Origin: Escherichia coli
GTDB taxonomy: Bacteria; Pseudomonadota; Gammaproteobacteria; Enterobacterales; Enterobacteriaceae
Assembly: GCF_016026235.1 (NCBI RefSeq)
Contig: NZ_CP065613.1
Direction: 5' to 3' (one strand)
Length of the DNA: 64,000 bases
Each line of letters begins with the position of its first letter. The stretch's first letter is position 1. Made by a program: the position numbers and the translations under genes. Shown here in pieces: positions 3,043 to 58,383 of the stretch. A model generated the notes under the pieces. That model worked only from the letters and a program-made list of their open reading frames with translations, did not search any database and was not told the DNA's origin.

Positions 3043-3046
3043 ATTC

Positions 3047-6519: not shown

Positions 6520-6528
6520 AAGATGTCC

Positions 6529-7302: not shown

Positions 7303-7306
7303 TCAC

Positions 7307-8653: not shown

Positions 8654-8655
8654 CG

Positions 8656-10469: not shown

Positions 10470-10473
10470 AGAA

Positions 10474-13760: not shown

Positions 13761-13764
13761 CTGA

Positions 13765-15249: not shown

Positions 15250-15271
15250 ACTGAAAATCCTTCTGTGAAAA

Positions 15272-15775: not shown

Positions 15776-16476
15776 AAAAATGTTCCCGTTCAGGCCATGA
15801 GCACAGCATTTTCGTACTGCATAAAAATACCGAAGATACCGTTTCAGTGGCAGTTAGATAATGTAACCTTCCTTCTGTTGTGATCAGTATTCTACTCATG
15901 AAATAAAATATTAAAAGAACTATTTATATTTTAGAAAGAGATGTATTCTTCCTTGCTAATATATTATAGTGAAATAAATTTTGGTATTTATAGACTTGGT
16001 GAATATGATTTTACGGTCAATAAAATACCATAATATATTGATTTATATGCATTTATTAAATTGATTAATAAGTTTTATGTATGGTTTTATCAATTAATTA
16101 ATTGCTAGCAATACATCATAAGGAATTCCTTTAAGGAATGTCTTAATTGCGTGCTGGAACGATGGCGGAGTAAGTGTCGTAATAATTTGTTTTTGACGCG
16201 GCTGTGGATTTTTATGGGGGGGAGATACGTTATGGATAATTGTGCTGTTGAAGTTGATATATTTTTAGCTTATGTGACCGTGTTCTGAAATTGACTAAAA
16301 ATATATTTAAACACCATAAAAGAGTTTTTCAGTAGGTGCTAATTACGTGTGCCTGTAACTCGAATAAAGAAAAGGGTGTGGTTCCTGATGTGAGCCGCAT
16401 CACACTCTAACCCGTCGGGGATTAACGACGGGTTGTTCGTAAAACAGCAGTTGATAATTTCACAAGGAGTTCATAA
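15776..16476. promoter_or_regulatory. AT-rich divergent intergenic region between tssB and hcp (candidate promoters / nucleoid-protein silencing region)
   Basis: About 700 bp, extremely AT-rich with phased A/T tracts, no ORF of 60 aa or more; flanked by divergent tssB operon and hcp. Confidence 0.4.
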
Positions 16477-16995
16477 ATGCCAACCCCATGTTACATTTCA
16501 ATTACAGGTCAGACCCAGGGGAACATCACTGCCGGTGCTTTCACCGCAGATTCTGTCGGCAATATCTACGTGCAGGGACACGAAGATGAAATGCTGGTGC
16601 AGGAGTTTCTGCATAACGTTACTGTTCCAACCGATCCACAGTCTGGTCAACCTTCCGGGCAGCGCGCGCACAAACCGTTCATTTTCACCGTGGCGCTGAA
16701 CAAAGCCGTTCCGCTGCTGTACAACGCGCTGGCCTCCGGTGAAATGCTGCCGAAAGTGGAGCTGCACTGGTGGCGTACTTCAGTTGAAGGCAAGCAGGAG
16801 CACTACTTCACCACACGTCTTACTGACGCGACGATTGTGGACATGAACCTGCACATGCCGCACTGCCAGGACCCTGCACAGCGTGAGTTTACGCAATTGC
16901 TCGCAGTATCACTGGCATACCGTAAGGTTGAGTGGGAGCACATCAAATCCGGTACTTCTGGTGCCGATGACTGGCGTGCACCGCTGGAAGCATAA
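16477..16995 (+). CDS. hcp: Hcp (TssD) T6SS tube protein
   Basis: 172 aa; MPTPCYISITGQTQGNITAGAFTADSVGNIYVQGHEDEMLVQEF typical Hcp. Confidence 0.9.
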   Translation: MPTPCYISITGQTQGNITAGAFTADSVGNIYVQGHEDEMLVQEFLHNVTVPTDPQSGQPSGQRAHKPFIFTVALNKAVPLLYNALASGEMLPKVELHWWRTSVEGKQEHYFTTRLTDATIVDMNLHMPHCQDPAQREFTQLLAVSLAYRKVEWEHIKSGTSGADDWRAPLEA

Positions 16996-17003
16996 ATCTG
17001 AGT

Positions 17004-17041
17004 CAACAACATCCTGCCTTCGTGCAGGATGTTGTTTTTGT
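17004..17041 (+). terminator. Rho-independent terminator after hcp
   Basis: Inverted repeat CAACAACATCCTGC / GCAGGATGTTGTT followed by TTTTTG, 9 nt after hcp stop. Confidence 0.6.
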
Positions 17042-17215
17042 ACGTGTAAAAAATGAGTGTCAGTAAGGAGTTACGCTTTCATGAGGGAGATGGCGGATGC
17101 CGGAAACCCGGGCGGTAGCGTACCTGAAAATGTAAAGATGAGTGTAACGCTGCACTGGCACCCTTTGCTGCATGGTGAGAATCATTTGGTCCGTGAATAA
17201 ATCAGGGAGGTCATT

Positions 17216-19615
17216 ATGTCCTTAAAAGGTCTGCGCTTTACGCTGGAGGCTGACGGCCAGGAGCCGGACACCTTTGCAGTGGTGAATTTCAGGTTAATCC
17301 AGAACCAGTCTTATCCGTTTGTGATGAGTGTGGATGTTGCCAGCGACTCTTTTATGCAGACGGCGGAGATGCTGCTGGAGAAGAAGGCGACGCTGACCAT
17401 CTGGCAGGGCGTCATCCCGCTGCGTTATGTTACCGGCGTGGTGGCGGGCTTTGGCATGCAGGAGAACAATGGCTGGCAGATGCGTTACCACCTGCGTATT
17501 GAGCCGCCGTTATGGCGGTGCGGGCTGCGGCAGAATTTCCGTATCTTCCAGCAGCAGGATATCCGGACGATATCGGCCACGTTACTGAACGAGAACGGCG
17601 TCACGGAGTGGACGCCGCTGTTTTATGAGGACCATCCGGCGCGGGAGTTCTGTGTGCAGTACGGGGAGTCGGACCTGGCGTTTCTGTCCCGGCTGTGGGC
17701 GGAGGAGGGAATTTTCTTCTTTGAGCGGTTTGCGGCGGACAGTCCGGAGCAGAAGCTGACGCTGTGCGACGATGTGGCGGGGCTGTCACAGGCGGGAGAG
17801 CTTCCGTTTAACCCGGACACATCGGCAGGAGCGGAGACAGAGTGTGTCAGTATGTTCCGTTATGAGGCGTATGTCCGCCCGTCGTCGGTGCAGAGCCAGG
17901 ATTACACGTTTAAGGTGCCGGACTGGCCGGGGATGTATGAGCAGCAGGGTGAGAACCTGAACGGACAGCTGGCGCAGTACGAGATATTTGATTATCCGGG
18001 AAGGTTCAAGGATGAGCAGCACGGCAAGGATTTCACGCTGTACCAGATGGAGAGCCTGCGCAGTGATGCGGAAAAGGCCACAGGGCAGAGTAATTCGCCG
18101 AGGCTGTGGCCGGGAACGCGGTTTACGCTGACGGGGCATCCGCAGAAGATGCTGAACCGTGAATGGCAGGTGGTACAGAGCATTCTGTCAGGAAACCAGC
18201 CGCAGGCGCTGCACGGCAGCCAGGGAAAGGGAACCACACTGGGAAATCAGTTAGAGGTGATACCGGCGGACCGGACGTGGCGTCCACGGCTGCAAAGCAA
18301 ACCGAAGGTGGACGGGCCACAGAGCGCCATTGTCACCGGGCCTGCGGGAGAGGAAATCTTCTGCGATGAACATGGCCGGGTACGGGTGAAGTTCCACTGG
18401 GACCGTTATCACGGGATGACGGAGGCGAGTTCATGCTGGGTGCGGGTATCGCAGGCGTGGGCGGGGCCGGGGTTTGGTAACCTGGCGATACCGCGGGTGG
18501 GCCAGGAGGTGATTGTTGATTTTCTGAACGGAGACCCGGACCAGCCGCTGGTCATGGGCCGGACGCACCATGAGGACAACCGTTCGCCGGGCGACCTGCC
18601 GGGAACGAAGACGCAGATGACCATCCGGTCGAAGACCTATAAAGGAAGCGGATTTAACGAACTGCGCTTCGAGGACGCCACCAGTAATGAGCAGGTGTAT
18701 ATCCATGCGCAGAAGAACATGGATACGGAGGTGCTCAACGACCGGACAACGGATGTGAAACATGACCATACGGAAACCATCGGTAACGACCAGAAGATAA
18801 CGGTGGTGAAGGGTCAGACGGTTCAGGTCGGTACAAAAAAAGAGGGGGGCCACGACCAGAGTATCACGGTGGCGAACGACCGGCGTATCACGGTACGTAA
18901 TGACCAGACTCTGAAGGTGACGAATGACCGGACGGTGAGCGTGAGTCACGATGACGGTCTGTACGTCAGAAACGACCGTAAAGTGACGGTGGAAGGGAAG
19001 CAGGAGCATAAGACGACGGGGAACCATATCAGTCTGGTGGAGGGGAAACACAGCCTGGTGGTGAAGGGGGACCTGGCGGAGAAGGTGAGTGGCGCGCTGG
19101 GGATAAAAGTGGACGGGGATATCGTGCTGGAGAGCAGCAGCCGGATAAGCCTGAAGGTGGGTGGCTCGTTTATCGTCATTCAGCCGGGCGGAGTGGATAT
19201 TGCCGGGCCGAAGATAAACCTGAACGGTGGGGGCAGTGCGGGGACACCGGTGGGGACGATGCAGCCGGCGGTGCTGGAGGCTCCGGAGGATGAGAGCAGT
19301 GATGATGGCAGTGATGACTCCGGAGAGGATAGTGGCAATCCCGCAGGGAGTGACGGAGGAGGTGATGGCGGTGACGATGAAGATGATCCTGAAAAATATA
19401 CCCTCCAGTTCCATTTTACGGACGATGACGGGATACCGTATTCAGAGACGCAGTATATTGCCTTTTTTGAGGATGGCACACAGACGCGTGGTGAAACAGA
19501 CAGAGAGGGATATACAGAAATATTTTATACAGATACAGCACAGGAAATTAAAGTCCAATTGTTATTTTCGGATGCTTTTTATATTGAGCCGGAGGGGCAT
19601 TATGGCAGGGAATAA
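17216..19615 (+). CDS. vgrG: VgrG (TssI) spike protein with acidic C-terminal extension
   Basis: 799 aa; gp27/gp5-like body, repeated RNDxT/V-type beta-helix motifs, C-terminal acidic linker (DDGSDDSGED...GGDDEDD) plus about 70 aa tail. Confidence 0.9.
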   Translation: MSLKGLRFTLEADGQEPDTFAVVNFRLIQNQSYPFVMSVDVASDSFMQTAEMLLEKKATLTIWQGVIPLRYVTGVVAGFGMQENNGWQMRYHLRIEPPLWRCGLRQNFRIFQQQDIRTISATLLNENGVTEWTPLFYEDHPAREFCVQYGESDLAFLSRLWAEEGIFFFERFAADSPEQKLTLCDDVAGLSQAGELPFNPDTSAGAETECVSMFRYEAYVRPSSVQSQDYTFKVPDWPGMYEQQGENLNGQLAQYEIFDYPGRFKDEQHGKDFTLYQMESLRSDAEKATGQSNSPRLWPGTRFTLTGHPQKMLNREWQVVQSILSGNQPQALHGSQGKGTTLGNQLEVIPADRTWRPRLQSKPKVDGPQSAIVTGPAGEEIFCDEHGRVRVKFHWDRYHGMTEASSCWVRVSQAWAGPGFGNLAIPRVGQEVIVDFLNGDPDQPLVMGRTHHEDNRSPGDLPGTKTQMTIRSKTYKGSGFNELRFEDATSNEQVYIHAQKNMDTEVLNDRTTDVKHDHTETIGNDQKITVVKGQTVQVGTKKEGGHDQSITVANDRRITVRNDQTLKVTNDRTVSVSHDDGLYVRNDRKVTVEGKQEHKTTGNHISLVEGKHSLVVKGDLAEKVSGALGIKVDGDIVLESSSRISLKVGGSFIVIQPGGVDIAGPKINLNGGGSAGTPVGTMQPAVLEAPEDESSDDGSDDSGEDSGNPAGSDGGGDGGDDEDDPEKYTLQFHFTDDDGIPYSETQYIAFFEDGTQTRGETDREGYTEIFYTDTAQEIKVQLLFSDAFYIEPEGHYGRE

Positions 19616-20405
19616 TAATACTAGTGGGACTTCACAACCCGAGTCGCAAGTATGTGTAGTACCGCAAAAAATTACAAATAAATTTAAAATAATGATGAGT
19701 AAGGCTTGTAAAGCACAGAAAATGGTTTTATTGAAAAGAGCAGATGATATTATGTCATGGGAGGGGGAACAACAACGAGATTTTATTAAAGTTTTTGGCC
19801 TTAAAGGCGAGGACATTATAAAAATCAGAAAGGTTGGGGAAGATACTGGGAAACGAATGCAAGCGAGACTATTCATAATGGATGGCATCAGACGAATAAT
19901 GACGATTGCAAATGGTTTGACGATCGAAAGCTATAAAGATTATACGAACTGCAATGAATTTGCTGCTTTTATTAGTCCACATCTTGATCCTCCTTACATT
20001 GTAAATATCGGAGCGCATTTTGAATACAGACATGGTATAAAACAGTCGGTTACAGGTAGAGACTCTCATGTAAGTACACTTTGCCATGAAATGTCCCATA
20101 TATTTTGGTATTGGGGTGACAATCAAAAAGGTGGTATGTGGACTCAGGATTATACGGGTATTAATAAGTTCGCAACAAGTAATAAGGATGAAGTTAGCTA
20201 TGAGAAACATGTTTCAGTGGCTAATGATCTGGTTACATTGCGTAAAGATCAGTTATTTGAGAATGCATATAATGTTGAAAGATATTTTTATATAAAATTA
20301 AATGATGAAGATATTGAAGCTCAAGATGAGAATATGTTAGCAAAAAAAGTAGAGGATAAAATAAAAGAGATAGAAAAATGTTTTGATGAGTTGATGGGGA
20401 AATAA
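19602..20405 (+). CDS. Putative VgrG-associated effector, zincin-like metallopeptidase candidate (HExxH)
   Basis: ATG at 19602 overlaps vgrG stop by 14 nt (track ORF 19227..20405 begins inside vgrG). AT-rich; motif STLCHEMSHIFWYWGD...WTQDYTG (HExxH plus a downstream Asp). Confidence 0.45.
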   Translation: MAGNNNTSGTSQPESQVCVVPQKITNKFKIMMSKACKAQKMVLLKRADDIMSWEGEQQRDFIKVFGLKGEDIIKIRKVGEDTGKRMQARLFIMDGIRRIMTIANGLTIESYKDYTNCNEFAAFISPHLDPPYIVNIGAHFEYRHGIKQSVTGRDSHVSTLCHEMSHIFWYWGDNQKGGMWTQDYTGINKFATSNKDEVSYEKHVSVANDLVTLRKDQLFENAYNVERYFYIKLNDEDIEAQDENMLAKKVEDKIKEIEKCFDELMGK

Positions 20406-20468
20406 GATGAAGAGGTTGGCTTTCTATAATCTAAATTATGTTGTACTGATGGTTTTTTTCTTTGTTTT

Positions 20469-21155
20469 TTGCCATTATCTATTGCAATTGCAATAGATAA
20501 TGAGAATCTTTTTGTAAAAAAATACAGATTCGGTTTTGAACGAAGAAGTGACAATGGGAAACCAATTATTTATCTTAGCCATAATTTAGCGCCAGAGGAA
20601 AATATAAGTAATGAATTAACAAATGATGTTGTTGTTAAATTGGTGGTTAAGCCACATGCTGAAAATATTTTAGCTACTATAACTTTTTATAACAGTAGTA
20701 CTAAATCGTATTTTCTCCCCAGAATATATTATCCAAAGAACTTCCAAAAAGGAAATGGAGATGTATTTGATGCTTTGTGTGATGACGAATTCTTGATTAC
20801 ATCAGGAAATATTAGCTTAGACTATCTAGGAGGCTTTTGTCCCTTTGAGCTTGATTTGAATTTGAGCCGATGGGTGGAAATTACGGCAGGTAAAAAAATA
20901 TCTTTTGATGTAAAATTGAATGATATGCATTCATTTCTCCCCAGTTTAAATAATTATCATATAAAAACATTAAACTACAAACTTGTTAGGAGAAAATGGT
21001 TTGTATTAAAATCAATTAATGAAACATTCCTCTCTATTTTGATGAAAAGATACTCATGTAATGAATATGATTTTAGAGCTATATCATTTAGTGGAGAGGG
21101 ATGTGATAATTATGAATTTGATAAAAATACGTTTTTTTTGTTAATCAAATATTAG
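20469..21155 (+). CDS. Hypothetical protein, immunity candidate for the upstream effector
   Basis: AT-rich 228 aa ORF directly downstream; begins with TTG in the track; a 29-codon ATG-initiated hydrophobic peptide (20407..20496) lies in another frame just upstream across a T-run. Confidence 0.3.
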   Translation: MPLSIAIAIDNENLFVKKYRFGFERRSDNGKPIIYLSHNLAPEENISNELTNDVVVKLVVKPHAENILATITFYNSSTKSYFLPRIYYPKNFQKGNGDVFDALCDDEFLITSGNISLDYLGGFCPFELDLNLSRWVEITAGKKISFDVKLNDMHSFLPSLNNYHIKTLNYKLVRRKWFVLKSINETFLSILMKRYSCNEYDFRAISFSGEGCDNYEFDKNTFFLLIKY

Positions 21156-21394
21156 ATAAAGATGATGAGCAACATTCTGTTCATATTAGGTCTAATGAAT
21201 TTTCCATCAATATCGATGGAAGCTTGGTAAAGCAACCTTATTGATTAAAATGTATCGCAGGTTTTATTTTCTGTAATGCTGGTGCATGTGCGTAAATATT
21301 TCTTAAGAGCCGGAAACACCTCTTCCGCCTTTATCGACGATAAACCTACCGCCAGAACCGGTGATGCCATTGACTGCGGTGGCGTGGTTAAAGG

Positions 21395-21732
21395 TGGCGG
21401 GCGATGTGGTGCTGGAGAGCAGCAGCCGGATAAGCCTGAAGGTGGGCGGTTCGTTTGTGGTCATCCATTCAGGGGGCGTGGACATCGTCGGGCCGAAAAT
21501 CAATCTCAATAGCGGCGGTAGTCCGGGAACGCCGGTGCCGACGCTGCAACCGGCGGTTCTGAAAGCGCTGGCAGATGATAAAAGTTTAGCGGCTGAGCAA
21601 AATGATAGTAATGCATCGTCCGATCAGAATGATAACAACGATGAGGGTGAGGAAGCGCCAGAAAAATCGGTGTGTAAGGAGTGCCTGAAAAGGGCGCAAG
21701 AAGCCGCCGCCGTTTTTGCGCCTCGTGGATAA
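21395..21732 (+). pseudogene. vgrG 3-prime fragment (orphan VgrG C-terminal region)
   Basis: 21395-21560 is near-identical at DNA and protein level to vgrG 19103-19270 (GDVVLESSSRISLKVGGSFVVI...GPKINLN); upstream sequence is unrelated to vgrG; distinct C-terminal tail. Confidence 0.7.
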
Positions 21733-21738
21733 GGGAGA

Positions 21739-22509
21739 ATGACAATGATAACAGTATCGCCACACGCTACCGATCAAGACAAATATATTATCTGGCTGAA
21801 GCAAGCTGAATCATTCTGTTCTGCCGCTGGTTTGGATTACATAGATGTGCTTGTTGACCAGGCTGGAACCGACCAACCTTTGCAAAATGATATGCTTCAT
21901 CTGTGGCCAGCCATTCACTGGTATGCCCTGTTTGAAGGAACGCCTGAAGCTGAGACGATGGAGTATTCCCCTGTAGTGTTACGCCTGTACTTTGCGCTCA
22001 GTAGCCATCGCAAATTTCTGGCACAACTGATGGCGTCATTTGCTGATACGCCGCGTCTTACTTTGTTGATATCCCCTCTTACATTCGACCTGCTGGGGCG
22101 GCATCTTCAGGTATTGTCACAGGTTCAGTGGGAAGAACAGACCGGATTGCTGCGTTACTATGATAATCGGGTGTTCCCTTTACTGTTCACACATGTTTTG
22201 ACTAACGAGCAGCAGGCGACATTTACTGATATTGCGTTGTTCTGGAGCTGGTTAGACCGTGATGGTGAGATTAACTGGAAATCAGGAAGTTTTTCACCAG
22301 AACGCAGGCTTACTGACAACCCGGAGATGAATCGGGTGGATGATGTACAGGTGGGATTGATGGGCTGTATCTGCGACGCTGAAGTCCTGATGAAGGAGAA
22401 AGCAGTCAGTGAACTCAGTCAGGAAAGCTATTTTGCCCACTGTCTTGATATTGCTTTCAGAGCCAATGACGCGAAATATTTCGGAGCTTTGCGGGACTTC
22501 GAAGGATAA
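21739..22509 (+). CDS. DUF4123-like T6SS effector adaptor (Tap/Tec-type)
   Basis: 256 aa immediately after the vgrG fragment (RBS AAGGGAG); size and position typical of DUF4123 adaptors. Confidence 0.6.
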   Translation: MTMITVSPHATDQDKYIIWLKQAESFCSAAGLDYIDVLVDQAGTDQPLQNDMLHLWPAIHWYALFEGTPEAETMEYSPVVLRLYFALSSHRKFLAQLMASFADTPRLTLLISPLTFDLLGRHLQVLSQVQWEEQTGLLRYYDNRVFPLLFTHVLTNEQQATFTDIALFWSWLDRDGEINWKSGSFSPERRLTDNPEMNRVDDVQVGLMGCICDAEVLMKEKAVSELSQESYFAHCLDIAFRANDAKYFGALRDFEG

Positions 22510-22822
22510 TATTGTGGTGATGTACGGGGAGATTTATCTGTTTAAAAGTCCGTAGCTGTTAATATCAAGAGATAATCGTGAAATAAACGGAAAATCAAGC
22601 TCGACATGTAATGGTAGTATCCATCATGTTGCATTTGTGTTCGATCGTAATGTCAGTTCACTTGGCTGCAATATATTTTGCGTAATATCATCAATGCTCT
22701 GTCGATATTCCAATGTGTGACAATCGAAAGATATGCATTTTATTTGCTTCTTTGTCAAAACTTTATTGTCGTAGAAACAATACCCATCAATTAAAATCTC
22801 TCAAAGTAAAAGAACCAGCAAC

Positions 22823-23377
22823 ATGTCCAGCAAAATAAGGAAAAGTATCAGTATGAGAGCGATTTTCAAATGTTATTCTCTAATGATTTTATTTGCAGTA
22901 TCAGGCTGTTCAATGGCAAAAAATAGCGGTGATTACACTGCTGTGGATATTAATGGGATAAATCATACGGATAAGGATATAAATTATATACACATCAATG
23001 GTTACGGCGGACCAAATATTGGCCCATTCGGAGACGGTGGAAGATATTGTTGCGTTATGCTGCCAGATAAGTGGCATTCTGGATTAAAAGCCCGAGTTGA
23101 GTGGGAGGTTGATCCAAATACAGCTCCTCTGCCTCCAGGCTATAAGGACAGGGAGAAATTTGAAGCATGGAAGAAAGTTGCGCTAAACAGTTTTAGAAAA
23201 TATTCAACAATTGTTGATATCCCGGAATATGATGCTGAGCTTTGTGGCCTGACCGTTCATTTTCTAACGTGTAATCAGATAAAAGTGACAACCGTCTGCC
23301 AGAAATATGGTACACCAAATTATCCTATCAAAGAACCCCGCGAGATGAAGGAACCAGCAACATGTCCAGCAAAATAA
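22823..23377 (+). CDS. DUF3304-like lipoprotein, Tli1-type immunity candidate (copy a)
   Basis: 184 aa, signal peptide with lipobox VSGC; paralogous to the next gene; Cys-rich (RYCCVMLPDKWHSGLKARVEWEVDPN). Confidence 0.5.
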   Translation: MSSKIRKSISMRAIFKCYSLMILFAVSGCSMAKNSGDYTAVDINGINHTDKDINYIHINGYGGPNIGPFGDGGRYCCVMLPDKWHSGLKARVEWEVDPNTAPLPPGYKDREKFEAWKKVALNSFRKYSTIVDIPEYDAELCGLTVHFLTCNQIKVTTVCQKYGTPNYPIKEPREMKEPATCPAK

Positions 23378-23904
23378 GAAATGGAATGAATATAACAAAA
23401 GTAGTTAAAGGCTGTCTGGTATTAATTTTGATGGTGATTTCGGGTTGCTCAGCAGCTAATTACGACGATTATACTGCAGGTGATCTCCGGGCAATAAATC
23501 ATATTAAAGGTATCAGTATTAATTGGTTCACCGTAAATGGTTATCGGGTCCATGGTTTGGGCGGTGGATATTGCTGCATAATGTTACCAGAGAAGTGGCA
23601 TTCTGGATTAAAAGCCCGGATCGAGTGGGAAGTAGACCCGAACCCCCTTGAACCTATTGCAATGAAAAAAGAAGGTTTTGGCTATGAAGAAGATGCTTAT
23701 GCTAAACATGCTGCAAATTATCAAAAATATAAAGTAATTGTTGATATCCCGGAATACGGCGCTGAACGTTGTGGCCTGACCGTTCATTTTCTGCCGTGTA
23801 ATCAGATTAAAGTGACAACCGTCTGCGAGGGCTATGGCACACCGAATTATCCTATCAAAGAACCCCGCGAGATGAAGGAACCTGCAACATGTCCAGCAAA
23901 ATAA
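23362..23904 (+). CDS. DUF3304-like lipoprotein, Tli1-type immunity candidate (copy b)
   Basis: 180 aa paralog of 22823..23377; the 3-prime approx 130 bp are about 90 percent identical between the copies. Confidence 0.5.
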   Translation: MSSKIRNGMNITKVVKGCLVLILMVISGCSAANYDDYTAGDLRAINHIKGISINWFTVNGYRVHGLGGGYCCIMLPEKWHSGLKARIEWEVDPNPLEPIAMKKEGFGYEEDAYAKHAANYQKYKVIVDIPEYGAERCGLTVHFLPCNQIKVTTVCEGYGTPNYPIKEPREMKEPATCPAK

Positions 23905-25982
23905 GTGGTCTGGCTTTTCCGTGTTATGCCCCCCCGGTGTTCCCTGAAGATGGGCGATTAATATTATCTGAAGTGCAGGTAAACGCGAACTACCTAAAAC
24001 AAATCAATAAAACAGAGGAGCACAAAACCAACTGTAGTAAACAGGCTGGATTTAGAATTGGCTTTACGTGTAATCAAAGTCTGCATATTAGTCTGTTTTT
24101 TGATGGTACAAATAATAATGAATATAATGACACAAAAGTCTCTCATCCAACCAATATTGCGAAATTATTCCACACAAGTATCGAAGACCGTAATGCTGGG
24201 TATTTTTCCTATTACATACCTGGTGTAGGCACACCATTTCCCAAGATAGGTGAAATGGATTACAGCAACAGCGGACTGGAATTTGCCACCGGTGGTGAAG
24301 ACAGGATTAATTGGGCATTATTACGCCTCGTGGATGCTCTTAGCTATGCTATTGACCCTACCCAAAATGGGCTGAATGAGAAGGTGGCAAAAGAGCACAT
24401 TCCTGTCATGCGAGCTCACTGGCCGATGACTGGTGAAGTGAATCGTCGCAATGTGATTAACCCCTACCTGGAAAAATTACAGGGGCAGTTAGAACAAGCC
24501 AGTCCGCGCCTGCTAAACGTAAAGCTATTTATCTACGGATTTTCCCGTGGCGCAGCGGAAGCGCGAACCTTTGTTAACTGGTTGACTCAGTTAGCTTGCC
24601 CGCAGAGGCAACAGGTGATGCTGGCCGGTTTAGCTGTCAGTATTGAGTTTTTGGGGCTGCTGGATACCGTAGCTTCTGTGGGGGCGGCGCATGTTTTGCC
24701 GGGCGCTGCCGGTCATATGGGATGGGCCGATAGTACTCAGCAACTCCCTGATGAGCGGCACTTTCCCGGCCTGATTAAATGCTGTCGTCACTTCGTTGCC
24801 GCGCATGAGCAGCGGCTGTGCTTCCCGCTGGATTCAATCCGTCGTCCTGAAGGCAATTATCCTTTATATGCAGAGGAAGTGATCTATCCGGGGATGCACT
24901 CTGATGTCGGTGGTGGCTATCCCGTTTGCGATCAGGGGAAGTCCTGTGGAGGTCCAGATGAAATTCTCTCTCAAATTGCTCTGCATGATATGTATCTTGC
25001 GGCGTTTGATGAGGGCTCTCCATTATCAGTGCATCCTTTATTCATAACCAAAATGATAAAAGATATTTCACCATCAAGAGCTATGTCTGATTCATCAATT
25101 GCTGAATTTGTCATCGCTCCAATGTTGATTAAACGCTTCAACATCTGGCGTCAAGCGCTGCTGAACACCACCTTGCAGGGTACAGAAGAAATGATTGATA
25201 CGAGGGAAGGTTATCACTCCTATCAACTTGCCCAGGTTCTTGAAAGCGCAATTAGCGATCAGATCGGCTGGATCACCGCCTGGCGTATCGGTCGCTATGC
25301 GAATAACAGCCTTCTTGTGCAACCTTTTTATATTAAGGCGCCACAGCTGGATAAAGATGGACTTGATAAAGAGGCTAAAGCGCGTAAAGAACAAATGGAA
25401 AATATTGAAAAAGAACAGGCGAACAAGCAGAAAGGGAATGGCACACTTGATGAAAGTAATCAGGGCATTCCTATCCTTGACCCAACCAATGCTCAGTATC
25501 AGTTGCGAGAGGCAGCCCGAGAATTTCAGAGCGATTATAAAGGATGGACGCGCGATATTAACGGCAGCGTCATGGAGAAAGCCATTCAGATTCTTGTGGA
25601 TGTCATTCCTAAATATCCGGTGTATCTGATTAATGGCGATGATGAAGCAAAAGAATATCAGCAAATTAAGGCTATGGGAGACGGACTCTATCCACAATTT
25701 TTTATTGATTCACTGGGAACGGGAACGCGTACTCAGCCATGCGCTGAATTACTGGCTCTCTATGATGACCAGGTTCACGACTCCCGCGCCTGGTTTATGC
25801 AAAGTTCGCTGGGTGGACGCGAACCCTGGGGCGGTTATTTTCGCTACCGCATGATTTACTTCGGTGATGAGGCTAATAAAGAGCTGAAGCTAATCTCTGC
25901 AGATGGCAAAGTTGTTGGCGATCAGCCCACATCCAACCGGGTCATTTATTGGATGGAATCGAAAACGGTGAGCCGAGGTTAA
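23889..25982 (+). CDS. Tle1-like phospholipase effector (DUF2235 alpha/beta hydrolase)
   Basis: 697 aa; DUF2235 hallmark HISLFFDGTNNN and nucleophile elbow GFSRG; follows adaptor and lipoprotein genes. Confidence 0.7.
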   Translation: MSSKISGLAFPCYAPPVFPEDGRLILSEVQVNANYLKQINKTEEHKTNCSKQAGFRIGFTCNQSLHISLFFDGTNNNEYNDTKVSHPTNIAKLFHTSIEDRNAGYFSYYIPGVGTPFPKIGEMDYSNSGLEFATGGEDRINWALLRLVDALSYAIDPTQNGLNEKVAKEHIPVMRAHWPMTGEVNRRNVINPYLEKLQGQLEQASPRLLNVKLFIYGFSRGAAEARTFVNWLTQLACPQRQQVMLAGLAVSIEFLGLLDTVASVGAAHVLPGAAGHMGWADSTQQLPDERHFPGLIKCCRHFVAAHEQRLCFPLDSIRRPEGNYPLYAEEVIYPGMHSDVGGGYPVCDQGKSCGGPDEILSQIALHDMYLAAFDEGSPLSVHPLFITKMIKDISPSRAMSDSSIAEFVIAPMLIKRFNIWRQALLNTTLQGTEEMIDTREGYHSYQLAQVLESAISDQIGWITAWRIGRYANNSLLVQPFYIKAPQLDKDGLDKEAKARKEQMENIEKEQANKQKGNGTLDESNQGIPILDPTNAQYQLREAAREFQSDYKGWTRDINGSVMEKAIQILVDVIPKYPVYLINGDDEAKEYQQIKAMGDGLYPQFFIDSLGTGTRTQPCAELLALYDDQVHDSRAWFMQSSLGGREPWGGYFRYRMIYFGDEANKELKLISADGKVVGDQPTSNRVIYWMESKTVSRG

Positions 25983-51868: not shown

Positions 51869-52264
51869 ATGAAAACGGTCATCACCTTCGGCACCTTCGA
51901 TGTGTTTCATGTCGGTCATCTGCGCCTTTTACAACGCGCCCGCAAGCTGGGCGAACGGCTGCTGGTCGGCGTATTGTCCGACGCCCTGAACATCGCCAAA
52001 AAGGGCAGGGCACCGGTTTACCATCAGGATGACCGCATGGCGATCATCGCCGGGCTGGCGTGCGTGGATGGCGTATTTCTGGAGGAATCGCTGGCGCAGA
52101 AAGCGGAGTATTTGCGGGGGTACAGTGCGGATATTTTAGTGATGGGGGATGACTGGGCAGGGAAGTTTGACGATTTCTCGTGTGTCTGTGAGGTGGTCTA
52201 TTTTCCCCGTACGCCGTCGGTATCGACGACGGGGATCATTGAGGTGATTAGGGGGAATGCATGA
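51869..52264 (+). CDS. Glycerol-3-phosphate cytidylyltransferase (TagD/TarD-like)
   Basis: 131 aa; VITFGTFDVFHVGHLRLL (HxGH motif), VMGDDWAGKFD and EVVYFPRTPSVSTTGI closely parallel Bacillus TagD as I recall it. Confidence 0.8.
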   Translation: MKTVITFGTFDVFHVGHLRLLQRARKLGERLLVGVLSDALNIAKKGRAPVYHQDDRMAIIAGLACVDGVFLEESLAQKAEYLRGYSADILVMGDDWAGKFDDFSCVCEVVYFPRTPSVSTTGIIEVIRGNA

Positions 52265-52275
52265 CAAAATAAAAT

Positions 52276-52839
52276 TTATTTTTGAGCCTCAAAGTAATTG
52301 AAGAAATATGTGTTATATTTATTTGTGTCTTTTTGTTTTATTCCATTTTTGCTAAAATAACTGTTTTTGTTTGTTGATATCTCTATTTCGATAGATTTTT
52401 CTTTTTTCATATATTCAATTTTGCATTTGTAATATCTAATAACGATATTTTCCCCATCCTTTATAACTTCAAAAATATTTGCATCATGCAGTTTGTCTAA
52501 TTTTCTATTCAAAAAGAAAGCGTCTGTTACCAGCGTTTCAACCTTGTTATTATAAGAAAAAAAGAAGCTCGCTGCACCCATATCGTTGCTTTCAAAAACT
52601 TGCTGTATATTCCCTTTAAAAAGGATGGTTTGCACTATAGTTGTTGGGGAAGAGTTTTTCTTACTATGGTTACTATAAGTTTTCATATTAATAACCATAT
52701 CCTTAAGTATGTCATTTTCCCCATATACTTCAAAGGCAGGTAGGTTTTTATTATAATCTGGATACACTATTATCATGAATAATAGAATCAAGCTTCTCAA
52801 TATAATACTAATCATTTGATTTATTCTTCCGGTGATCAT
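52276..52839 (-). CDS. Hypothetical membrane/secreted protein (AT-rich insert, gene 2)
   Basis: 187 aa, N-terminal hydrophobic segment (MISIILRSLILLFMIIVY), Asn/Lys-rich; 32-nt overlap with upstream gene. Confidence 0.4.
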   Translation of the reverse strand: MITGRINQMISIILRSLILLFMIIVYPDYNKNLPAFEVYGENDILKDMVINMKTYSNHSKKNSSPTTIVQTILFKGNIQQVFESNDMGAASFFFSYNNKVETLVTDAFFLNRKLDKLHDANIFEVIKDGENIVIRYYKCKIEYMKKEKSIEIEISTNKNSYFSKNGIKQKDTNKYNTYFFNYFEAQK

Positions 52840-53629
52840 TAAAACTGCTTTGATTGCAGGTTAAAATCAATTTCCCATTATTATAACACTGCATAGGGAG
52901 AGACTTTAGTGGATTTTTATCATCCGGAAATAAGGCATCCCATCCTTGACCTTCAGAACAGGCAACCATGTATGTTGGTGAAAAAGACCAACCTATATTT
53001 ATTGACCTCATAATCGAAGTTGTCCTAATATCTGGGAAATAAGATGGATAAGTACTTTCTGTTTGTCCCCAGACATTAACGTCCTTAAAATTATCTAATA
53101 GGGATAATTTACTGGCAAAACCTTGTCCTGAATCATCACTTGCATAACTAGTGCGACAACCATACATAACAAACATAGCGTTATTTGACCAGTTAAAATC
53201 AATTGAATCCCATCCTCCGATTATGTTCATTTGTTGTGGGTATTTAGGCACGGAAGGTGTATTTACAGAGTCTGAGGTTGTAGGACCATGAATTGGCCCC
53301 CCATGTGAGAATAAACTGACTTCTTTAACTTTTGCTTTGGTTATACCTCCATTCTTGTTTATAAAGGTTTCTAATATTTCTTTGATTTGATTAAATGTGT
53401 TAATTGATAAATGGTAAACTATCTGTGTTTCTTTTTTATACTCGGGGGAGTAAAGGATGTTGAAATAACGCGTCAGACATGCTTCTTCAAAAATAGAACG
53501 TCGGCTATCACCGGACTCATCAACCCAAAATAATAGAAACAATTCCTTTGGGCGAGATATTTTTTGAGTGACAATGTTGTTTTGTTTCTGGCTTGTTGTA
53601 CCGGAAGTTACTTTTTTATCATAAGTCAT
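52808..53629 (-). CDS. Hypothetical protein (AT-rich insert, gene 1)
   Basis: 273 aa; candidate catalytic residues in SLFSHGGPIHG (approx 105-115) and MYGCRTSY (approx 155-162); no family recognised. Confidence 0.4.
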   Translation of the reverse strand: MTYDKKVTSGTTSQKQNNIVTQKISRPKELFLLFWVDESGDSRRSIFEEACLTRYFNILYSPEYKKETQIVYHLSINTFNQIKEILETFINKNGGITKAKVKEVSLFSHGGPIHGPTTSDSVNTPSVPKYPQQMNIIGGWDSIDFNWSNNAMFVMYGCRTSYASDDSGQGFASKLSLLDNFKDVNVWGQTESTYPSYFPDIRTTSIMRSINIGWSFSPTYMVACSEGQGWDALFPDDKNPLKSLPMQCYNNGKLILTCNQSSFNDHRKNKSND

Positions 53630-53844
53630 GTTATCGTTTATGCTCTATCAATTTTAACAAAATGTTAAATTACGCAATAATTGTTATAGTGTGTAACCTA
53701 TATTTATGATAAGCAATATGTTTAGCAAGATTCAGGTTTTTTCAGAATTCATAAAGATCGCTCCCCCACAATCTACGACTTTTACCGATTCACCAGTCAT
53801 AAAGCGATGAGTTTGAAATCAGAGGGTAGTTAAGTGCGTTGTTC

Positions 53845-53945
53845 GTGCCAGATGCGGCGTAAACGCCTTAACCGGCCTACAAATCCTTACAAATTCAATA
53901 CATTGCAAGGTCGCGTAGGCCTGATAAGCGAAGCGCATCAGGCAC
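53845..53945. repeat. REP elements
   Basis: GCCAGATGCGGCGTAAACGCCTTAACCGGCCTAC and GTAGGCCTGATAAGCGAAGCGCATCAGGC palindromes. Confidence 0.6.
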
Positions 53946-53954
53946 TTGCGCGGT

Positions 53955-54767
53955 TTACCCAAACGCCTCTACAATCACCATCGCCGCCCGTTCTCCCGCT
54001 TTGCCATCCATAAACGCATCGCAATAATGATGGCGAATTTCCGCCAGCTTCGTCTGCACCGCCCCCCAGTCAAACGCCTCTGACAGCAAATAACGCAGTT
54101 CCGCGACATTATGAGCCACCGGCAATATTTCGCGAATCCGCTGGTCGGCGCTCTCTGCCGTGGAGTAACTTTTCTCACCGTCGAGCAAATCATTCATGCC
54201 CGGAAAGTCGAGCAGGATCACCCGCTTATCAACGTGGATAGCATCGAAAATAAAACCGCTGTTATCGGTCAGCACGTAATCGGCCTTTGCCAGTAGCGCC
54301 AGCGTGTGGCGGGCGGAGTCGGTGCGCTGTTTTAAGTGCCTGCGCGCCAGGGCCAGCGATGCGGCTTCTTCCGGGCGTGAGCAGGTGCCGTGGTGCAGTT
54401 TGCAAATCAGGTTCACATCACCGCTTAAGCGGCCCAATTTTTCTGCCCAGTGGGGCAGGGAGCTTAGTGCGCCAAACGTTGGGGCGTAGAGCACCGTAGG
54501 TTTACGGTCATCCAGTTCGATATTTCTCGGCAACGCGCGATCAAACGTGCCGTTATGCCAGGCGTCGAAGCGCGGGTTGCCGACCACTTTTGCGCTGCCG
54601 AAATGTTCCAGCGCCTGCTGGCTGTAGTGGCTGTAACACAAAATGCGCTGATAAAAACGGTTCCAGTCGGCGTGGTTCCACGTCTCTTTAGCTAAGCCGT
54701 ACATAGCGCGGACGTTCACCGCTGCCAGGCCATTGAGTATGGCGTGTGGTAGGGGCTGACCAGGCAT
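53955..54767 (-). CDS. CDP-glycerol glycerophosphotransferase (TagF/TagB-like) C-terminal region
   Basis: 270 aa with TagF-family blocks GNPRFD, VLYAPTF, KLHH, YVLTDNSGFIFDAIHVDKRVILLD. Confidence 0.65.
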   Translation of the reverse strand: MPGQPLPHAILNGLAAVNVRAMYGLAKETWNHADWNRFYQRILCYSHYSQQALEHFGSAKVVGNPRFDAWHNGTFDRALPRNIELDDRKPTVLYAPTFGALSSLPHWAEKLGRLSGDVNLICKLHHGTCSRPEEAASLALARRHLKQRTDSARHTLALLAKADYVLTDNSGFIFDAIHVDKRVILLDFPGMNDLLDGEKSYSTAESADQRIREILPVAHNVAELRYLLSEAFDWGAVQTKLAEIRHHYCDAFMDGKAGERAAMVIVEAFG

Positions 54768-56392
54768 TTCACTCGCAGGCCGTGTGCCTGCATTGCCGAT
54801 AAGTGCATTCCTTTAAGCTGCGGGTCGTCGATGCTTTTTAGCGTTGCCAGCATCTCATCAAGAAACGGTTTAAACACGCGGTCGTTGATCACCAGCGTGC
54901 AGCTCTGCCCCTGCGCCTGTAGCGCGGTGATGATTGGGCGGTAGAGCGCGTAGTGGAAGGAGGTTTCCATAAAAAAGCCGATGGTGTCGGCGATGGGTAA
55001 TGCGGATGGCTTTGTGGCTACGGGTAACTTATTGAAATAGTGACCAATGTTGTCAGTCGCTTTTTTCTCTATATCGCTAAAGCCCGGTCGCTGATAACTA
55101 AGGCTCGGATAACAGGCCAGCCATTTGTCGGCGCGTAGCAGCGGCTGCCAGCAGGCTTCCAGCGAGTGCTCATCGTTGCTCATCTGCTGCGCCAGTTGCG
55201 GGTAGTAGCGGCTGTTCACCAGATAAGCGCATACCTTGCGGCAGTCCCGCGCGTGCACCAGCCCCGGCAAACTTTTTAGCATCGTTCCCTGCGAAATTTC
55301 GCCGCCAAGGATCATCACCTGCCAGGGAATTTTCGCCAGGCTCGCCAGCAGCGTGTTCAGCACCTGAATATGTTTCTCCTGCTTGAGAATAACCGCGTCA
55401 TCTTCCAGCAGCAGGTAGTTTTGCCAGCTGTGCTGTTGCGCCAGGCGCAGCGCCTGCAAGTGTGAATGGCGGCGGCCCCGTTGACCGTTTTCATCTTCAT
55501 TGGCGGCAAGGCGGGTGATCTTCTCGGGTGGAATATGCAGCAGTGCCAGTTCTTCACGGATCTGCTGTAAGCGATCCGGGCGTTTATCCAGATTCACGAT
55601 GACCACCTGATCAATCGCCTGATGGTTGATTGCCTGGTGATGAGTGGCGTTATGCAGACTCAGATAAGCGTTGCGTAGCAGCGGATCGCTGACGATGTCG
55701 CTCAGTTCGGCGTTTACAGGCGTGCTGGCCCCGAGAATAAAGTCTTTATCAAAGGTGTTGTGGCTGTGCGAGATACACAGAATCGTGCGCTCGCCGGGCA
55801 ACTGCAGCGGGTTAACGCTGAAATTGTTGGTGAAACTTTTCTCTTCGCTCAGATTGCAATCGTCATCGTAACGGTGCTTTTTCAGGTAGTTACAGTGATA
55901 GCAAAAGGTGCCGTTGAGGATGTTATGCGGGCCAAAGCTGCGGCTTTGAAAGATACGGTTGATATGGCTGTACCAGATGGGGATCTGGTCAGAACCGGAG
56001 ATGAGCGCCCGGTGTTTTTGCATTATGGCGATGGTGTAAGAGATTTTATCTGCCGGGTAGTAGTCGTCGTCATCCATGCAGAGGATATATTCGCCGCGCG
56101 CCAGTTCGTTGAGCATATTGCGTTTTTTGCCCAGCGGCAGTTTTTCCGGGTGATGGATGTAGCGGATGTTGAAGGACTCCGGCGTGCCATTGGTCAGGCG
56201 GTCGATGATGTGTTGATGGCTTTGCGGGGAGTCGTCGAGGATGACCAGTTCGCGGTGATCTGCCGGGTAGTCCTGATAGCGGTACATGTAGAGCAGGTAC
56301 GGCAGGAATGTGGCACGGTTCCAAGTTGGCGTGACGACGCTCACGAAGGGTTTTTCGCGGTGAGTAGCGAGTGTTTTGATGATGGTTTGCAT
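54716..56392 (-). CDS. Multidomain glycosyltransferase (GT2-like N-terminus, GT25-like middle, TagF-like tail)
   Basis: 558 aa; GT2-type start (VSVVTPTWNRATFLP...ILDDSP, DDD), central VVIVNLDKRPDRL block; overlaps the downstream TagF-like ORF by 52 nt in another frame. Confidence 0.6.
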   Translation of the reverse strand: MQTIIKTLATHREKPFVSVVTPTWNRATFLPYLLYMYRYQDYPADHRELVILDDSPQSHQHIIDRLTNGTPESFNIRYIHHPEKLPLGKKRNMLNELARGEYILCMDDDDYYPADKISYTIAIMQKHRALISGSDQIPIWYSHINRIFQSRSFGPHNILNGTFCYHCNYLKKHRYDDDCNLSEEKSFTNNFSVNPLQLPGERTILCISHSHNTFDKDFILGASTPVNAELSDIVSDPLLRNAYLSLHNATHHQAINHQAIDQVVIVNLDKRPDRLQQIREELALLHIPPEKITRLAANEDENGQRGRRHSHLQALRLAQQHSWQNYLLLEDDAVILKQEKHIQVLNTLLASLAKIPWQVMILGGEISQGTMLKSLPGLVHARDCRKVCAYLVNSRYYPQLAQQMSNDEHSLEACWQPLLRADKWLACYPSLSYQRPGFSDIEKKATDNIGHYFNKLPVATKPSALPIADTIGFFMETSFHYALYRPIITALQAQGQSCTLVINDRVFKPFLDEMLATLKSIDDPQLKGMHLSAMQAHGLRVKCLVSPYHTPYSMAWQR

Positions 56393-57092
56393 GATATGTT
56401 TACGAAGTAGATAAGGCCGGGAAAAACCGGCCTGAAAGCGTTAGCAAGGTAGCAGCGAAAACGCATAAAGCAGCGGCTCTGCGCAACATTCAGCCTGAAT
56501 TTGTTGGCGAATCAGCAGCGCATTTTCACTCTCTCGCCAGCGTTCAAACATGGCAAAGAGGGCGAAAATATCCTCCTGCCGCAGCGGAGAACCATCCAGC
56601 GTCCATAAACTGATTAACGTGCGGAGGAGATAAAAATCGCACACCAGCGGGAAATAATCCGCCCCGTCAGTCTGCCCAATCATATCGTGGTAAACGCGGT
56701 AAATCAGCCAGTTACGCATCATCCAGGGCGCGGTGGCAAAATGCTGTTGCCAGGTGGTTTGCCACTGCGTCTGAAGCTGCTGTTGTAACAGGGCTTCGCT
56801 GTTGGCGTCATGCAGCGTCAGTAAAGTAACCTGCAACGGCAGCGAGGCTTTGCGCGGGCTTTCCGGCAAAATCGACCAGTCAAACGCACAACCGCCGAGC
56901 AGCGTCATCAACTGGCGCGCCAGCTGTGGCACGGGTGGGAGCTGGGCGTACTGTGCCTGTAGCGTACCTTTTTTCGCATGATCGGCCAGCGCCTGTGGCA
57001 GCGTCGTCAAACGGGCCAGGATGTCTCCGTCTCTGCCCGGCATTTTGCTGGCGCGGGAGAGCAAAATCCCGACAGCATACAGGGAAAGCTCC

Positions 57093-58383
57093 TGAGGAAT
57101 CCCCAGAAAACAAGACAGGCATAGTGAGATGTGATCTAATTGATTGTGCTAACAATTTCAAGGAGATCACCACTATGCCTGCACGTTCATTATGCCAAAA
57201 TTTCCTTAACAATATACTGGCCCCTTTGCATCTTTACCGTCAAAAATCACTGATTGACGCAACTAATGCTGTAATAAATGGCGCTTCCCTCACACTTACC
57301 AGTATCGGGCGTCATTTAACCGGTACGGCATCAGTTAAAAACAAAATAAAGCGGGTGGATCGACTGTTGGGGAATCGACATTTGCAAAATGAGGTTTCCA
57401 CCATTTTTTAGCGAATTACCCAAAAGATTACGCGGGGAATGTCTCGTGTTGTGATACTCATTGACTGGAGTGCTTATCATGCCTCTCGTTTTCAGCTTTT
57501 GCGGGCAAGCCTGGCATGTGACGGGCGTTCTTTACCGTTGATGAGTTGTGTCGTTCCATCATCACAGACAGCGAATGCAGATGTACATGAGCGTTTTCTG
57601 GAATCGCTTGCTGAGTGCTTTTCCCCCGGGACTGATGTCATTGTTATTACAGATGCCGGTTTTCAGGGGCGATGGTTCCAACAGCTCCGCTCCCGTGGCT
57701 GGACCTATATTTGCCGGGTACTGGGCAATCATTATTACAATGTTGGTAATGGCTGGGAAAAGGTGTCGGACTCAGGCACAAAAGCATCAACGACAGCAAT
57801 TTATTTAGGTGAAGGCCTGCTGGGTCGAGATAAAAATGCACAACATGAAGGGCATTTTTATCTTTATAAAAGTAAGCCTAAAGGTCGTAGATTTAAACGC
57901 TCGAAGGAAAGAGCAACCAGACCATCGGTGACGGCTAAAGCTCGTACTGCCGGGAAATCACCATGGTTTATTTTCACAAACAGTACTGAGTTCTCGCCAA
58001 AACAGGTAATGAAATTATACAGCCGTAGAATGCAAATTGAGCAAAATTTCAGGGATGAAAAAATCCTCGCTGGGGATTTGGACTACGGTTTGGTGCCAGT
58101 CATTCATCCGGGCGGGTCACGGTATTGAGTCTGATCGCAACATTAGCCAGTATCATTATGTGGTTAAGCGGTTTCAGCCTGGAAAACAAAGGGATACATC
58201 ATAAATATCAGGCAAATACAGTGAAGCACAGGCGAGTCATCTCGTTATTAAAACTGGCGGAGAATGTGATTCGACATTCTCCACTCATACTAAACACACT
58301 GTCACTTGACGCAGGGCTGAAAGTTCTACAGCAACGGTATACCAATATGATAATGGTTTACTAAATTTTCTGGGGATCCCTCA
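57093..58383 (+). mobile_element. IS4-family-like insertion sequence, copy 2 (mutated), inverted relative to copy 1
   Basis: Same inverted repeats as copy 1; 11-bp direct repeat GGGAAAGCTCC at 57082-57092 and 58385-58395. Confidence 0.8.
57175..58364 (+). pseudogene. IS transposase pseudogene (nonsense codon plus 1-bp deletion)
   Basis: Relative to copy 1: CAG to TAG at approx 57410 and an A6 run where copy 1 has A7 (approx 58066-58071); track shows three ORF pieces. Confidence 0.75.

Follow-up and report, generated by a model that had tools for sequence, protein, structure and literature searches.

A probable orphan type VI secretion effector-immunity cassette encoding a predicted caspase-fold toxin in the Flag-2 locus of Escherichia coli

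We analysed a 64,000-nucleotide stretch of Escherichia coli DNA (contig NZ_CP065613.1 of assembly GCF_016026235.1; hereafter the window) and an AT-rich insert in its lateral flagella (Flag-2) locus that carries two minus-strand genes, here called gene 1 and gene 2. The insert is probably a horizontally acquired, orphan antibacterial effector-immunity cassette of a type VI secretion system (T6SS), lodged in the cargo hotspot of Flag-2 variable region 1 (VR1). What the data support directly is a foreign cassette, a caspase fold with a conserved His/Cys dyad in the gene 1 product, an obligatory exported partner encoded by gene 2, and relatives linked to vgrG, hcp, Rhs and DUF4123 genes. An earlier note, made from the letters of the window, had placed two minus-strand genes between a TagD-like and a TagF-like gene, and both open reading frames (ORFs), which are intact, and both neighbours were confirmed. 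The lengths given there were 273 and 187 amino acids (aa) with overlapping genes; the first length stands, the second is that of the maximal ORF only, and the gene 2 product is probably of 179 aa, because RefSeq and all homologous loci start at Met9. From this start the overlap with the effector stop is 8 nt, not 32 nt, as it is in the homologous loci L002, L008 and L009. The cassette comprises the following features.

About 52256-53841, no strand: AT-rich insert (cargo cassette) of 1.6 kb in Flag-2 VR1, from empty-site alignment and GC content
52808-53629, minus strand: gene 1, effector (toxin) gene, intact ORF, 273 aa, 31 kDa
53549-53629, minus strand: conserved, loosely ordered N-terminal leader of gene 1, residues 1-27
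53303-53305, minus strand: codon of His109 (FSHG), predicted catalytic histidine, right after core strand 99-107, from conservation and model
53156-53158, minus strand: codon of Cys158 (YGC), predicted nucleophile, right after core strand 147-155, from conservation and model
52276-52815, minus strand: gene 2, immunity gene, 179 aa from Met9, from the RefSeq start and homologous loci
52276-52839, minus strand: maximal ORF of gene 2, intact, 187 aa
53630-53841, minus strand: AT-rich non-coding leader of the cassette with presumed promoter, from sequence
53842-53950, no strand: pair of repetitive extragenic palindromic (REP) sequences at the right boundary, marking the insertion point and found in the ATCC 8739 empty site too

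The surroundings of the insert are the E. coli Flag-2 locus, 97.7-99.9% identical to many E. coli chromosomes by megablast, and in strain SMS-3-5 both genes are annotated as hypothetical proteins (WP_000220508.1 and WP_000623467.1). The composition had been described as far below that of the flanks, and it is: the GC content is 0.30-0.36 over both genes compared with 0.55-0.63 for the flanking flagellar genes, and 0.326 for the pair compared with 0.525 for the rest of the window. E. coli ATCC 8739 (L018) presents the empty site, in which the TagD-like and glycosyltransferase genes lie 117 bp apart with the REPs in that spacer. In alignment with this site, the insert takes the place of about 31 bp and changes the last codons of the TagD-like gene. 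The REP element noted earlier at the far boundary is thus present, but as the empty site has it too it is ancestral and lies outside the cassette. Taking the lfiI-lfiJ-tagD segment as the criterion, 1275 of 5426 complete E. coli genomes are Flag-2-positive, and the cassette, counted as present at a coverage of at least 80%, was found in 127 of these 1275 (about 10%; SMS-3-5 and NC101 among them), in one copy each. In the remaining roughly 90% there is no cassette and the TagD and glycosyltransferase genes are adjacent. In 119 genomes the effector ORF was intact, with a conservation of at least 99%. Strain AHM8C160RI (L017) has a divergent allele at the same Flag-2 site (79% nucleotide identity; effector and partner about 71% and about 53% identical to the window proteins), and some E. 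coli, for instance 88COLEC (L016), hold the immunity gene only at this site. An empty site in most strains, two alleles at one site and immunity-only strains are population signatures typical of effector-immunity genes.

Two of these strains carry further genes at the site. In AHM8C160RI, a fic gene (protein adenylyltransferase) and a duplicated TagD-like fragment stand beside the divergent allele (L017, 1402-2998), which suggests that the cassette was imported through recombination with another Flag-2 locus. In 88COLEC (L016, 3501-5855), three other ORFs, small and AT-rich, come after the immunity gene; they encode 212, 166 and 126 aa, the 212- and 166-aa products with signal peptides and none of the three with an NCBIfam or PADLOC match; the site looks like an orphan-immunity islet.

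Inspection of the gene 1 product found no signal peptide, and its residues from about 28 to 260 are predicted to form a caspase-fold (clan CD-like, DUF4347-related) cysteine peptidase domain. AlphaFold2 on a 102-sequence alignment gave a model with a predicted local distance difference test score (pLDDT) of 93.5 and a predicted TM-score (pTM) of 0.89. His109 and Cys158, 49 residues apart, are invariant among 7 relatives from an indexed search (alignment A1) and among 45 sequences (A3), and conserved to at least 90% among 102 sequences (A2). In the model, H109-G110 and then C158 each stand at the end of a core strand; this order and the spacing of 49 residues agree with clan CD dyads. The earlier note had singled out His/Cys-containing segments as catalytic candidates; the histidine of SLFSH and the cysteine of YGC proved to be invariant or nearly so, while the second histidine, in PIHG, is not conserved. 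A Foldseek search of the PDB with the model returned clan CD matches only, at low TM-scores of 0.29-0.40. The closest solved structure was Tce1 (PDB 9qpe), and GPI transamidase and asparaginyl ligases were also among the best. Against AFDB50, family members came first, some labelled DUF4347, followed by caspase-family proteins, and one structural relative in AFDB is an M23-fused protein. Furthermore, Arg54, Gln133/Gln189 and Arg202 of gene 1 are invariant, and along the chain they come in the same order as the Arg-Gln-Arg residues that form the S1 pocket in caspases; as a speculation from sequence, this order hints at recognition of an acidic P1 group, such as D-isoglutamate (D-iGlu) or meso-diaminopimelate (meso-DAP).

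To our knowledge, all known toxin-type members of the caspase fold are hydrolases, and this counts against the idea that the domain is a transpeptidase or ligase (of GPI transamidase or legumain type) or a non-catalytic binding module that poisons the envelope in another way. We regard that idea as very improbable, since the His/Cys dyad and the surrounding glycines are conserved as in active clan CD hydrolases and mutation of the cysteine of Tce2 abolishes its toxicity (PMC13323088), even if GPI transamidase and the asparaginyl ligases stand so high among the structural matches. A Tae-type amidase (NlpC/P60 or CHAP) was rejected on the order of His before Cys, the caspase-like fold and the absence of a Pfam NlpC/P60 or CHAP match.

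By sequence, gene 1 had no match in NCBIfam and a weak partial match to Pfam DUF4347 (PF14252; E 4.8e-4, 20.4 bits, model positions 25-116 of 164). None of 45 relatives matched DUF4347 at E<=0.001 and 4/45 did so at E<=0.1, and the family is best described as a sister family to DUF4347 in the same superfamily. Searches of PDB chain sequences with the single protein and with the 102-sequence profile returned Rhs-core flanks or noise and no match to solved structures. A word-indexed homology search found 7 effector relatives and 4-12 immunity relatives, and an exhaustive profile search was needed to reveal the family, which comprises 338 clusters at E<=1e-3 and 86 at E<=1e-30. It has no Pfam or NCBIfam model of its own, and all relatives encountered are named hypothetical or uncharacterized in their sources. 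Members were found in Escherichia, Superficieibacter, Salmonella enterica subsp. salamae, Acinetobacter, Entomomonas, Aquimarina, Bizionia, Chryseobacterium and Prevotella.

The domain lies at the extreme C-terminus in 154/154 representatives, 37 of which are complete standalone proteins like that of the window. A regular expression found an Rhs-core-type junction directly upstream of the domain in at least 43 of the 154; this count is a lower bound, as it missed three proteins (P0053, P0068 and P0073) in which the Rhs-associated core TIGR03696 was detected upstream of the domain. Seven members are full Rhs/YD-repeat proteins of 801-3576 aa, and many relatives are Rhs toxins of environmental Bacteroidota. 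Other N-terminal fusions are to Hcp/TssD (2 proteins), LysM (P0027) and Hint. This architecture is that of a polymorphic-toxin C-terminal domain. The standalone members share the N-terminal leader (..KKVT.G....NNI..QKI[ST]R.KELFLLFW), which is absent from the Rhs-fused versions and may be a loading signal for the T6SS.

A gene 2 homologue follows the effector gene in 11/11 loci (the window, L002, L004, L005, L008, L009, L011, L012, L014, L017 and L019), usually with an overlap of 8 nt. The partners were recognised by a hidden Markov model (HMM) with E-values of 1e-84 to 5e-11, and of 6.5e-4 for the most distant one, in L012; they share the motifs PxFE[VI]YG..IL..IN, TDAF, HDAN and YY. The N-terminal hydrophobic export or anchor segment attributed earlier to gene 2 (residues 2-16) is a family trait, as a hydropathy scan found exactly one hydrophobic segment, N-terminal, in 10/10 partners. 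A lipobox-like [LIVC]-x-[GAS]-C is present in 7/10, three of them strictly fitting PROSITE PS51257. The window allele has Tyr at the position of the lipobox Cys, so its product would be signal-anchored or processed by signal peptidase I (SPase-I). The AlphaFold2 model of gene 2 (pLDDT 83) begins with a helix at the N-terminus, after which comes a mainly beta domain that is predicted to face the periplasm. Gene 2 had no match in Pfam or NCBIfam and belongs to an unnamed immunity family. The resemblance to a toxin-immunity pair that had been suggested for the two genes is hence upheld by a foreign insert, a caspase-fold dyad and a partner in every one of the 11 loci, from Enterobacteriaceae to Bacteroidota. 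Type II toxin-antitoxin and anti-phage defence systems were ruled out by the export or anchor signal of the partner, and neither protein had a PADLOC match.

The genomic contexts of the homologues point to T6SS and Rhs delivery:

L004: effector homologue begins 1 nt past vgrG
L011 (Entomomonas moraniae): effector homologue begins 4 nt past vgrG
L012 (Bacteroidota metagenome): effector homologue after hcp
L014: two hcp genes about 7 kb upstream of the effector homologue, on the same strand
L019 (LysM-fused member): DUF4123, a T6SS adaptor, and a peptidoglycan hydrolase of CHAP type encoded in the same array
L002 (Superficieibacter electus): AT-rich island standing alone, with nfo on one side and fruA on the other

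Homologues were thus not confined to flagellar glycosylation islands; they follow vgrG or hcp or are Rhs-fused, and they were never unpaired. The Flag-2 context is limited to the Escherichia alleles and most contexts are non-flagellar. The DUF4123 array of L019 (2005-3617) also encodes a second LysM protein of 389 aa with His/Cys motifs of its own ('IFAHG ... YACRTG'), which suggest a further effector like caspase/DUF4347; the gene after it encodes a multi-pass membrane protein of 146 aa, an immunity protein of another type.

The excerpted text of De Maayer et al. 2020 (PMC6993521) documents Flag-2 VR1 as a hotspot of cargo genes, among which vgrG-Rhs-Imm26, hcp, pesticin and Ntox44 are found elsewhere. 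The window cassette occupies the same hotspot, between lfiJ and lfgN; in the excerpts, the two-gene cassette is not singled out or named, and about a third of the cargo genes are given as hypothetical proteins. The same excerpts contain the suggestion that toxin-like cargo might be exported through Flag-2. One could accordingly suppose that the pair serves the lateral flagellum, either as a substrate of Flag-2 type III export or, alongside the TagD-like and TagF-like genes, in the processing or modification of lateral flagellin by an enzyme; a position in VR1, a region that codes mostly for flagellin-modification enzymes, and a second allele at the same site would fit this. We find it scarcely credible, however, because about 90% of Flag-2-positive E. 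coli lack the cassette, its composition is foreign to the locus, and no flagellar genes lie near the homologues, which are placed between nfo and fruA in Superficieibacter, downstream of vgrG or hcp, or at the C-terminal end of Rhs proteins; these contexts give no support to cargo export via Flag-2. An enzyme of flagellin glycosylation or modification was ruled out by the non-flagellar contexts, the absence of the cassette from about 90% of Flag-2 loci and the lack of a transferase domain in NCBIfam and Pfam searches. The data support VR1 as a mere integration hotspot for competition cargo, not as a site of toxin export through lateral flagella.

The earlier note had put the pair forward as an undescribed system. 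Instead, it is probably a T6SS effector-immunity cassette whose toxin falls into the already predicted 'Tox-Caspase'/DUF4347-like class (PMC3482391; PMC13323088), and what had not been described is the particular toxin family, immunity family and target within a known kind of system. The nearest solved relatives are Tce1 (PA0256, DUF4347; PDB 9qpe) and Tce2 (PA2372), putative cysteine-protease effectors of the P. aeruginosa H3-T6SS (PMC13323088). The window protein resembles both in its caspase/CPD-like alpha/beta fold, which is predicted, in being a putative cargo-type T6SS effector and in a His-then-Cys dyad with a spacing of about 50 residues (His186/Cys240 in Tce1, His65/Cys115 in Tce2); to DUF4347, the Pfam family of Tce1, its match is weak. 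It differs from Tce1 in that there is no sequence-level match, even with the 102-sequence profile. Moreover, in the gene 1 family, unlike for Tce1 and Tce2, a cognate partner with an export signal is always present, and Rhs- or Hcp-fused polymorphic toxins are found as well. Loading into the Hcp lumen has been demonstrated for Tce1, whereas the closest gene 1 homologues follow vgrG. Assignment to the Tce1/Tce2 type of Hcp-lumen cargo effectors was rejected on the immunity-type partner, which is always present here and absent for Tce1 and Tce2.

Caspase-fold toxins such as TcdA/B and the cysteine protease domains (CPDs) of MARTX act in eukaryotic cells, and this, together with Tce1 as the closest solved structure, favours a different interpretation, in which the gene 1 product is, like Tce2, a T6SS effector directed against eukaryotes and gene 2 encodes a chaperone or adaptor in place of an immunity protein. 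Tce2 is toxic to yeast through its cysteine and neither Tce protein harmed E. coli (PMC13323088). Nevertheless, we consider this interpretation improbable: all 10 partners scanned carry an export or lipoprotein signal, unlike a cytoplasmic chaperone, and Tce1 and Tce2 have no such partner. Immunity-only loci and allelic divergence of effector and immunity gene are typical of interbacterial toxins, and the many relatives that are Rhs toxins of environmental Bacteroidota likewise speak against a eukaryotic target.

The 'Tox-Caspase' class of Zhang, Aravind et al. 2012 (PMC3482391) shares with the gene 1 family the caspase-like fold, the H/C residues, the position at the C-terminal tip of Rhs- or T6SS-delivered toxins and the adjacent immunity genes. 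It is a broad, purely computational class, its immunity families Imm36 and Imm57 differ from the gene 2 family, and no member has been demonstrated to act in the periplasm. The organisation of the cassette is also that of Tse1-Tsi1, Ssp1-Rap1a (Tae/Tai) and Tlde1-Tldi1, namely a signal-less effector with a periplasmic or lipoprotein immunity protein in a small overlapping bicistronic unit, and with Tae/Tai and Tlde1-Tldi1 it further shares orphan copies, immunity-only loci, Cys/His chemistry and hints of a cell-wall target (LysM, CHAP, M23). The folds differ: Tae effectors are papain-like (NlpC/P60/CHAP) with Cys before His and Tlde1 has the YkuD fold, in contrast to the caspase fold with His before Cys predicted for the window toxin. 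Among clan CD peptidases (C14 caspases, C13 legumain/GPI8, C11 clostripain, C25 gingipain, C80 CPD and CHAT), the modelled likeness would extend to the fold and to His-Gly and Cys placed after consecutive core strands. In contrast, identity is 7-15% with no sequence-profile match, and the window protein is set apart by additional strands at its C-terminus and by the conserved motifs GQ-x5-PS, R202, YMV and FNDH; it is also proposed to be an interbacterial toxin with a dedicated inhibitor.

The window contains a candidate delivery machine, with the following features:

1603-19615, no strand: T6SS cluster, from megablast, the annotation of a near-identical cluster and tblastn
16477-16995: hcp of this cluster
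17216-19615: vgrG of this cluster
11490-13347, minus strand: tssF, split; by tblastn, TssF residues 19-479 lie at 13275-11893, while a different frame at 11894-11490 encodes residues 479-613

The cluster comprises tssA, vasI, tssH, tssL, tssK, tssJ, tagH, tssG, tssF, tssE, tssC, tssB, hcp and vgrG and lies about 30 kb from the cassette, the T6SS region including a Tle1 module spanning about 1.6-26 kb. Its VgrG (17216-19615) has a C-terminal TTR-like motif (..LQFHFTDDDGIPYSETQYIAF..GETDREGYTEIFY..) in common with the VgrGs of L004 (276-2624) and L011 (5664-7997), both of which directly precede effector homologues. To judge from these sequences, the TTR-like motif is a possible docking domain for the gene 1 effector family and a lead for its loading.

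A cytoplasmic toxin with a periplasm-facing protector is the hallmark of periplasm-acting T6SS effectors (Tae/Tai, Tle/Tli, Tlde1/Tldi1). For the window copy we infer T6SS export, a periplasmic site of action, protease activity and an envelope substrate. The signal-less gene 1 toxin would be loaded on the T6SS spike or tube, the likely carrier being a VgrG with the TTR-like C-terminal domain, or Hcp, and the conserved 27-residue leader would perhaps mediate this step. It would be injected into neighbouring Gram-negative cells and act in their periplasm, where it would cut a component of the cell envelope, be it the stem peptides of peptidoglycan or an essential protein of the periplasm or envelope. 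The LysM fusion, the CHAP neighbour and the M23-fused structural relative point weakly to a cell-wall target. The gene 2 product would be exported, and its N-terminal signal or anchor would tether it to the inner membrane on the periplasmic side (most relatives being lipoproteins), and there it would bind and block toxin arriving from sister cells. We put forward tentatively, with somewhat less than even confidence, that this is the first antibacterial, periplasm-acting family of caspase-fold toxins with a periplasmic inhibitor family of its own, distributed over Proteobacteria and Bacteroidota on T6SS and Rhs scaffolds, and with a target new among interbacterial toxins, a peptidoglycan stem-peptide bond that a caspase-type active site would cleave, or an essential envelope protein.

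Several points weigh against a functional antibacterial cassette of this kind. The window copy is not adjacent to vgrG, hcp or PAAR, and with a tssF that looks frameshifted the T6SS cluster of the window may not allow this strain to deliver the toxin. The structural matches to solved clan CD proteins have the low TM-scores given above, and the nearest of them, Tce1, has, like Tce2, no immunity gene, is non-toxic in E. coli and was proposed to be anti-eukaryotic (PMC13323088). In the E. coli immunity allele the lipobox Cys is lost, and its presumed topology draws on hydrophobicity and homologues. The idea of a peptidoglycan target is based on domain fusions and neighbours only. Full-text literature searches with the RefSeq/UniProt accessions of both proteins and of two homologues returned nothing, and a search for a characterised periplasmic clan-CD T6SS effector found none.

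The tssF frameshift of 1 nt near 11893 marks either a pseudogene, with T6SS-1 possibly inactive, or an assembly indel. It bears on the possibility that the cassette is a remnant kept for defence, its immunity gene being useful against toxin-carrying kin and its effector undeployed, silenced or without a working or compatible T6SS. Immunity-only sites in other E. coli, the frameshift itself, the distance of 30 kb from vgrG and the AT-rich cassette, in which a consensus scan for sigma-70 promoters and terminators found sites no commoner than chance, would all agree with such a remnant. E. coli often has further T6SS clusters outside the stretch that the window covers, however, and the frameshift may be an assembly error, since there is a second one in the glycosyltransferase gene. 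In addition, the effector ORF, intact and so highly conserved in those 119 genomes with its dyad kept, argues for selection on the toxin too, and we consider the defence remnant unlikely.

If an antibacterial effector-immunity cassette is accepted, two hypothetical genes that about 130 complete E. coli genomes carry gain a likely role, as does a family that numbers at least 338 clusters. The recently described DUF4347/Tce group of T6SS cysteine-protease effectors, for which an anti-eukaryotic role was proposed, would then also take part in conflict between bacteria, and a new immunity family would be added. If the substrate lies in the envelope, a caspase-type active site would be used against bacterial cell walls, and the partner would be a natural protein inhibitor of that fold; a periplasmic target, if confirmed, would make the finding more notable.

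The cassette sits between two convergent genes:

51869-52264: left neighbour, TagD-like, best match glycerol-3-phosphate cytidylyltransferase TIGR01518 (111 bits, under the curated cut-off)
53955-56392, minus strand: right neighbour, GT2 and Glyphos_transf (TagB/F-type) glycosyltransferase

The glycosyltransferase is a single 814-aa gene in SMS-3-5 and ATCC 8739 and is frameshifted in the window, where a 1-nt deletion near 54740 leaves ORFs of 270 and 558 aa. Together, the frameshifts in tssF and in this gene are either assembly indel errors or signs that T6SS-1 is defective and the Flag-2 locus is decaying in the strain, in which case the cassette may now act mainly as immunity. Flag-2 VR1 seems to be decaying in this lineage. 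At 56926-58128 the window has transposase-like ORFs (IS4/IS5-type) where other strains have a lysine-N-methylase (LafV/FliB-like) gene, and in the nearest genome, FDAARGOS_943, an IS5 lies within the cassette region. Past the vgrG of the T6SS cluster, the stretch 19227-25982 holds another effector-immunity set, of canonical type: genes for an M35-type peptidase-like protein and its partner, a fragment of vgrG (about 21388-21567), a gene for a DUF4123 adaptor, a tandem pair of DUF3304 lipoprotein genes and one for a phospholipase of Tle1 type.

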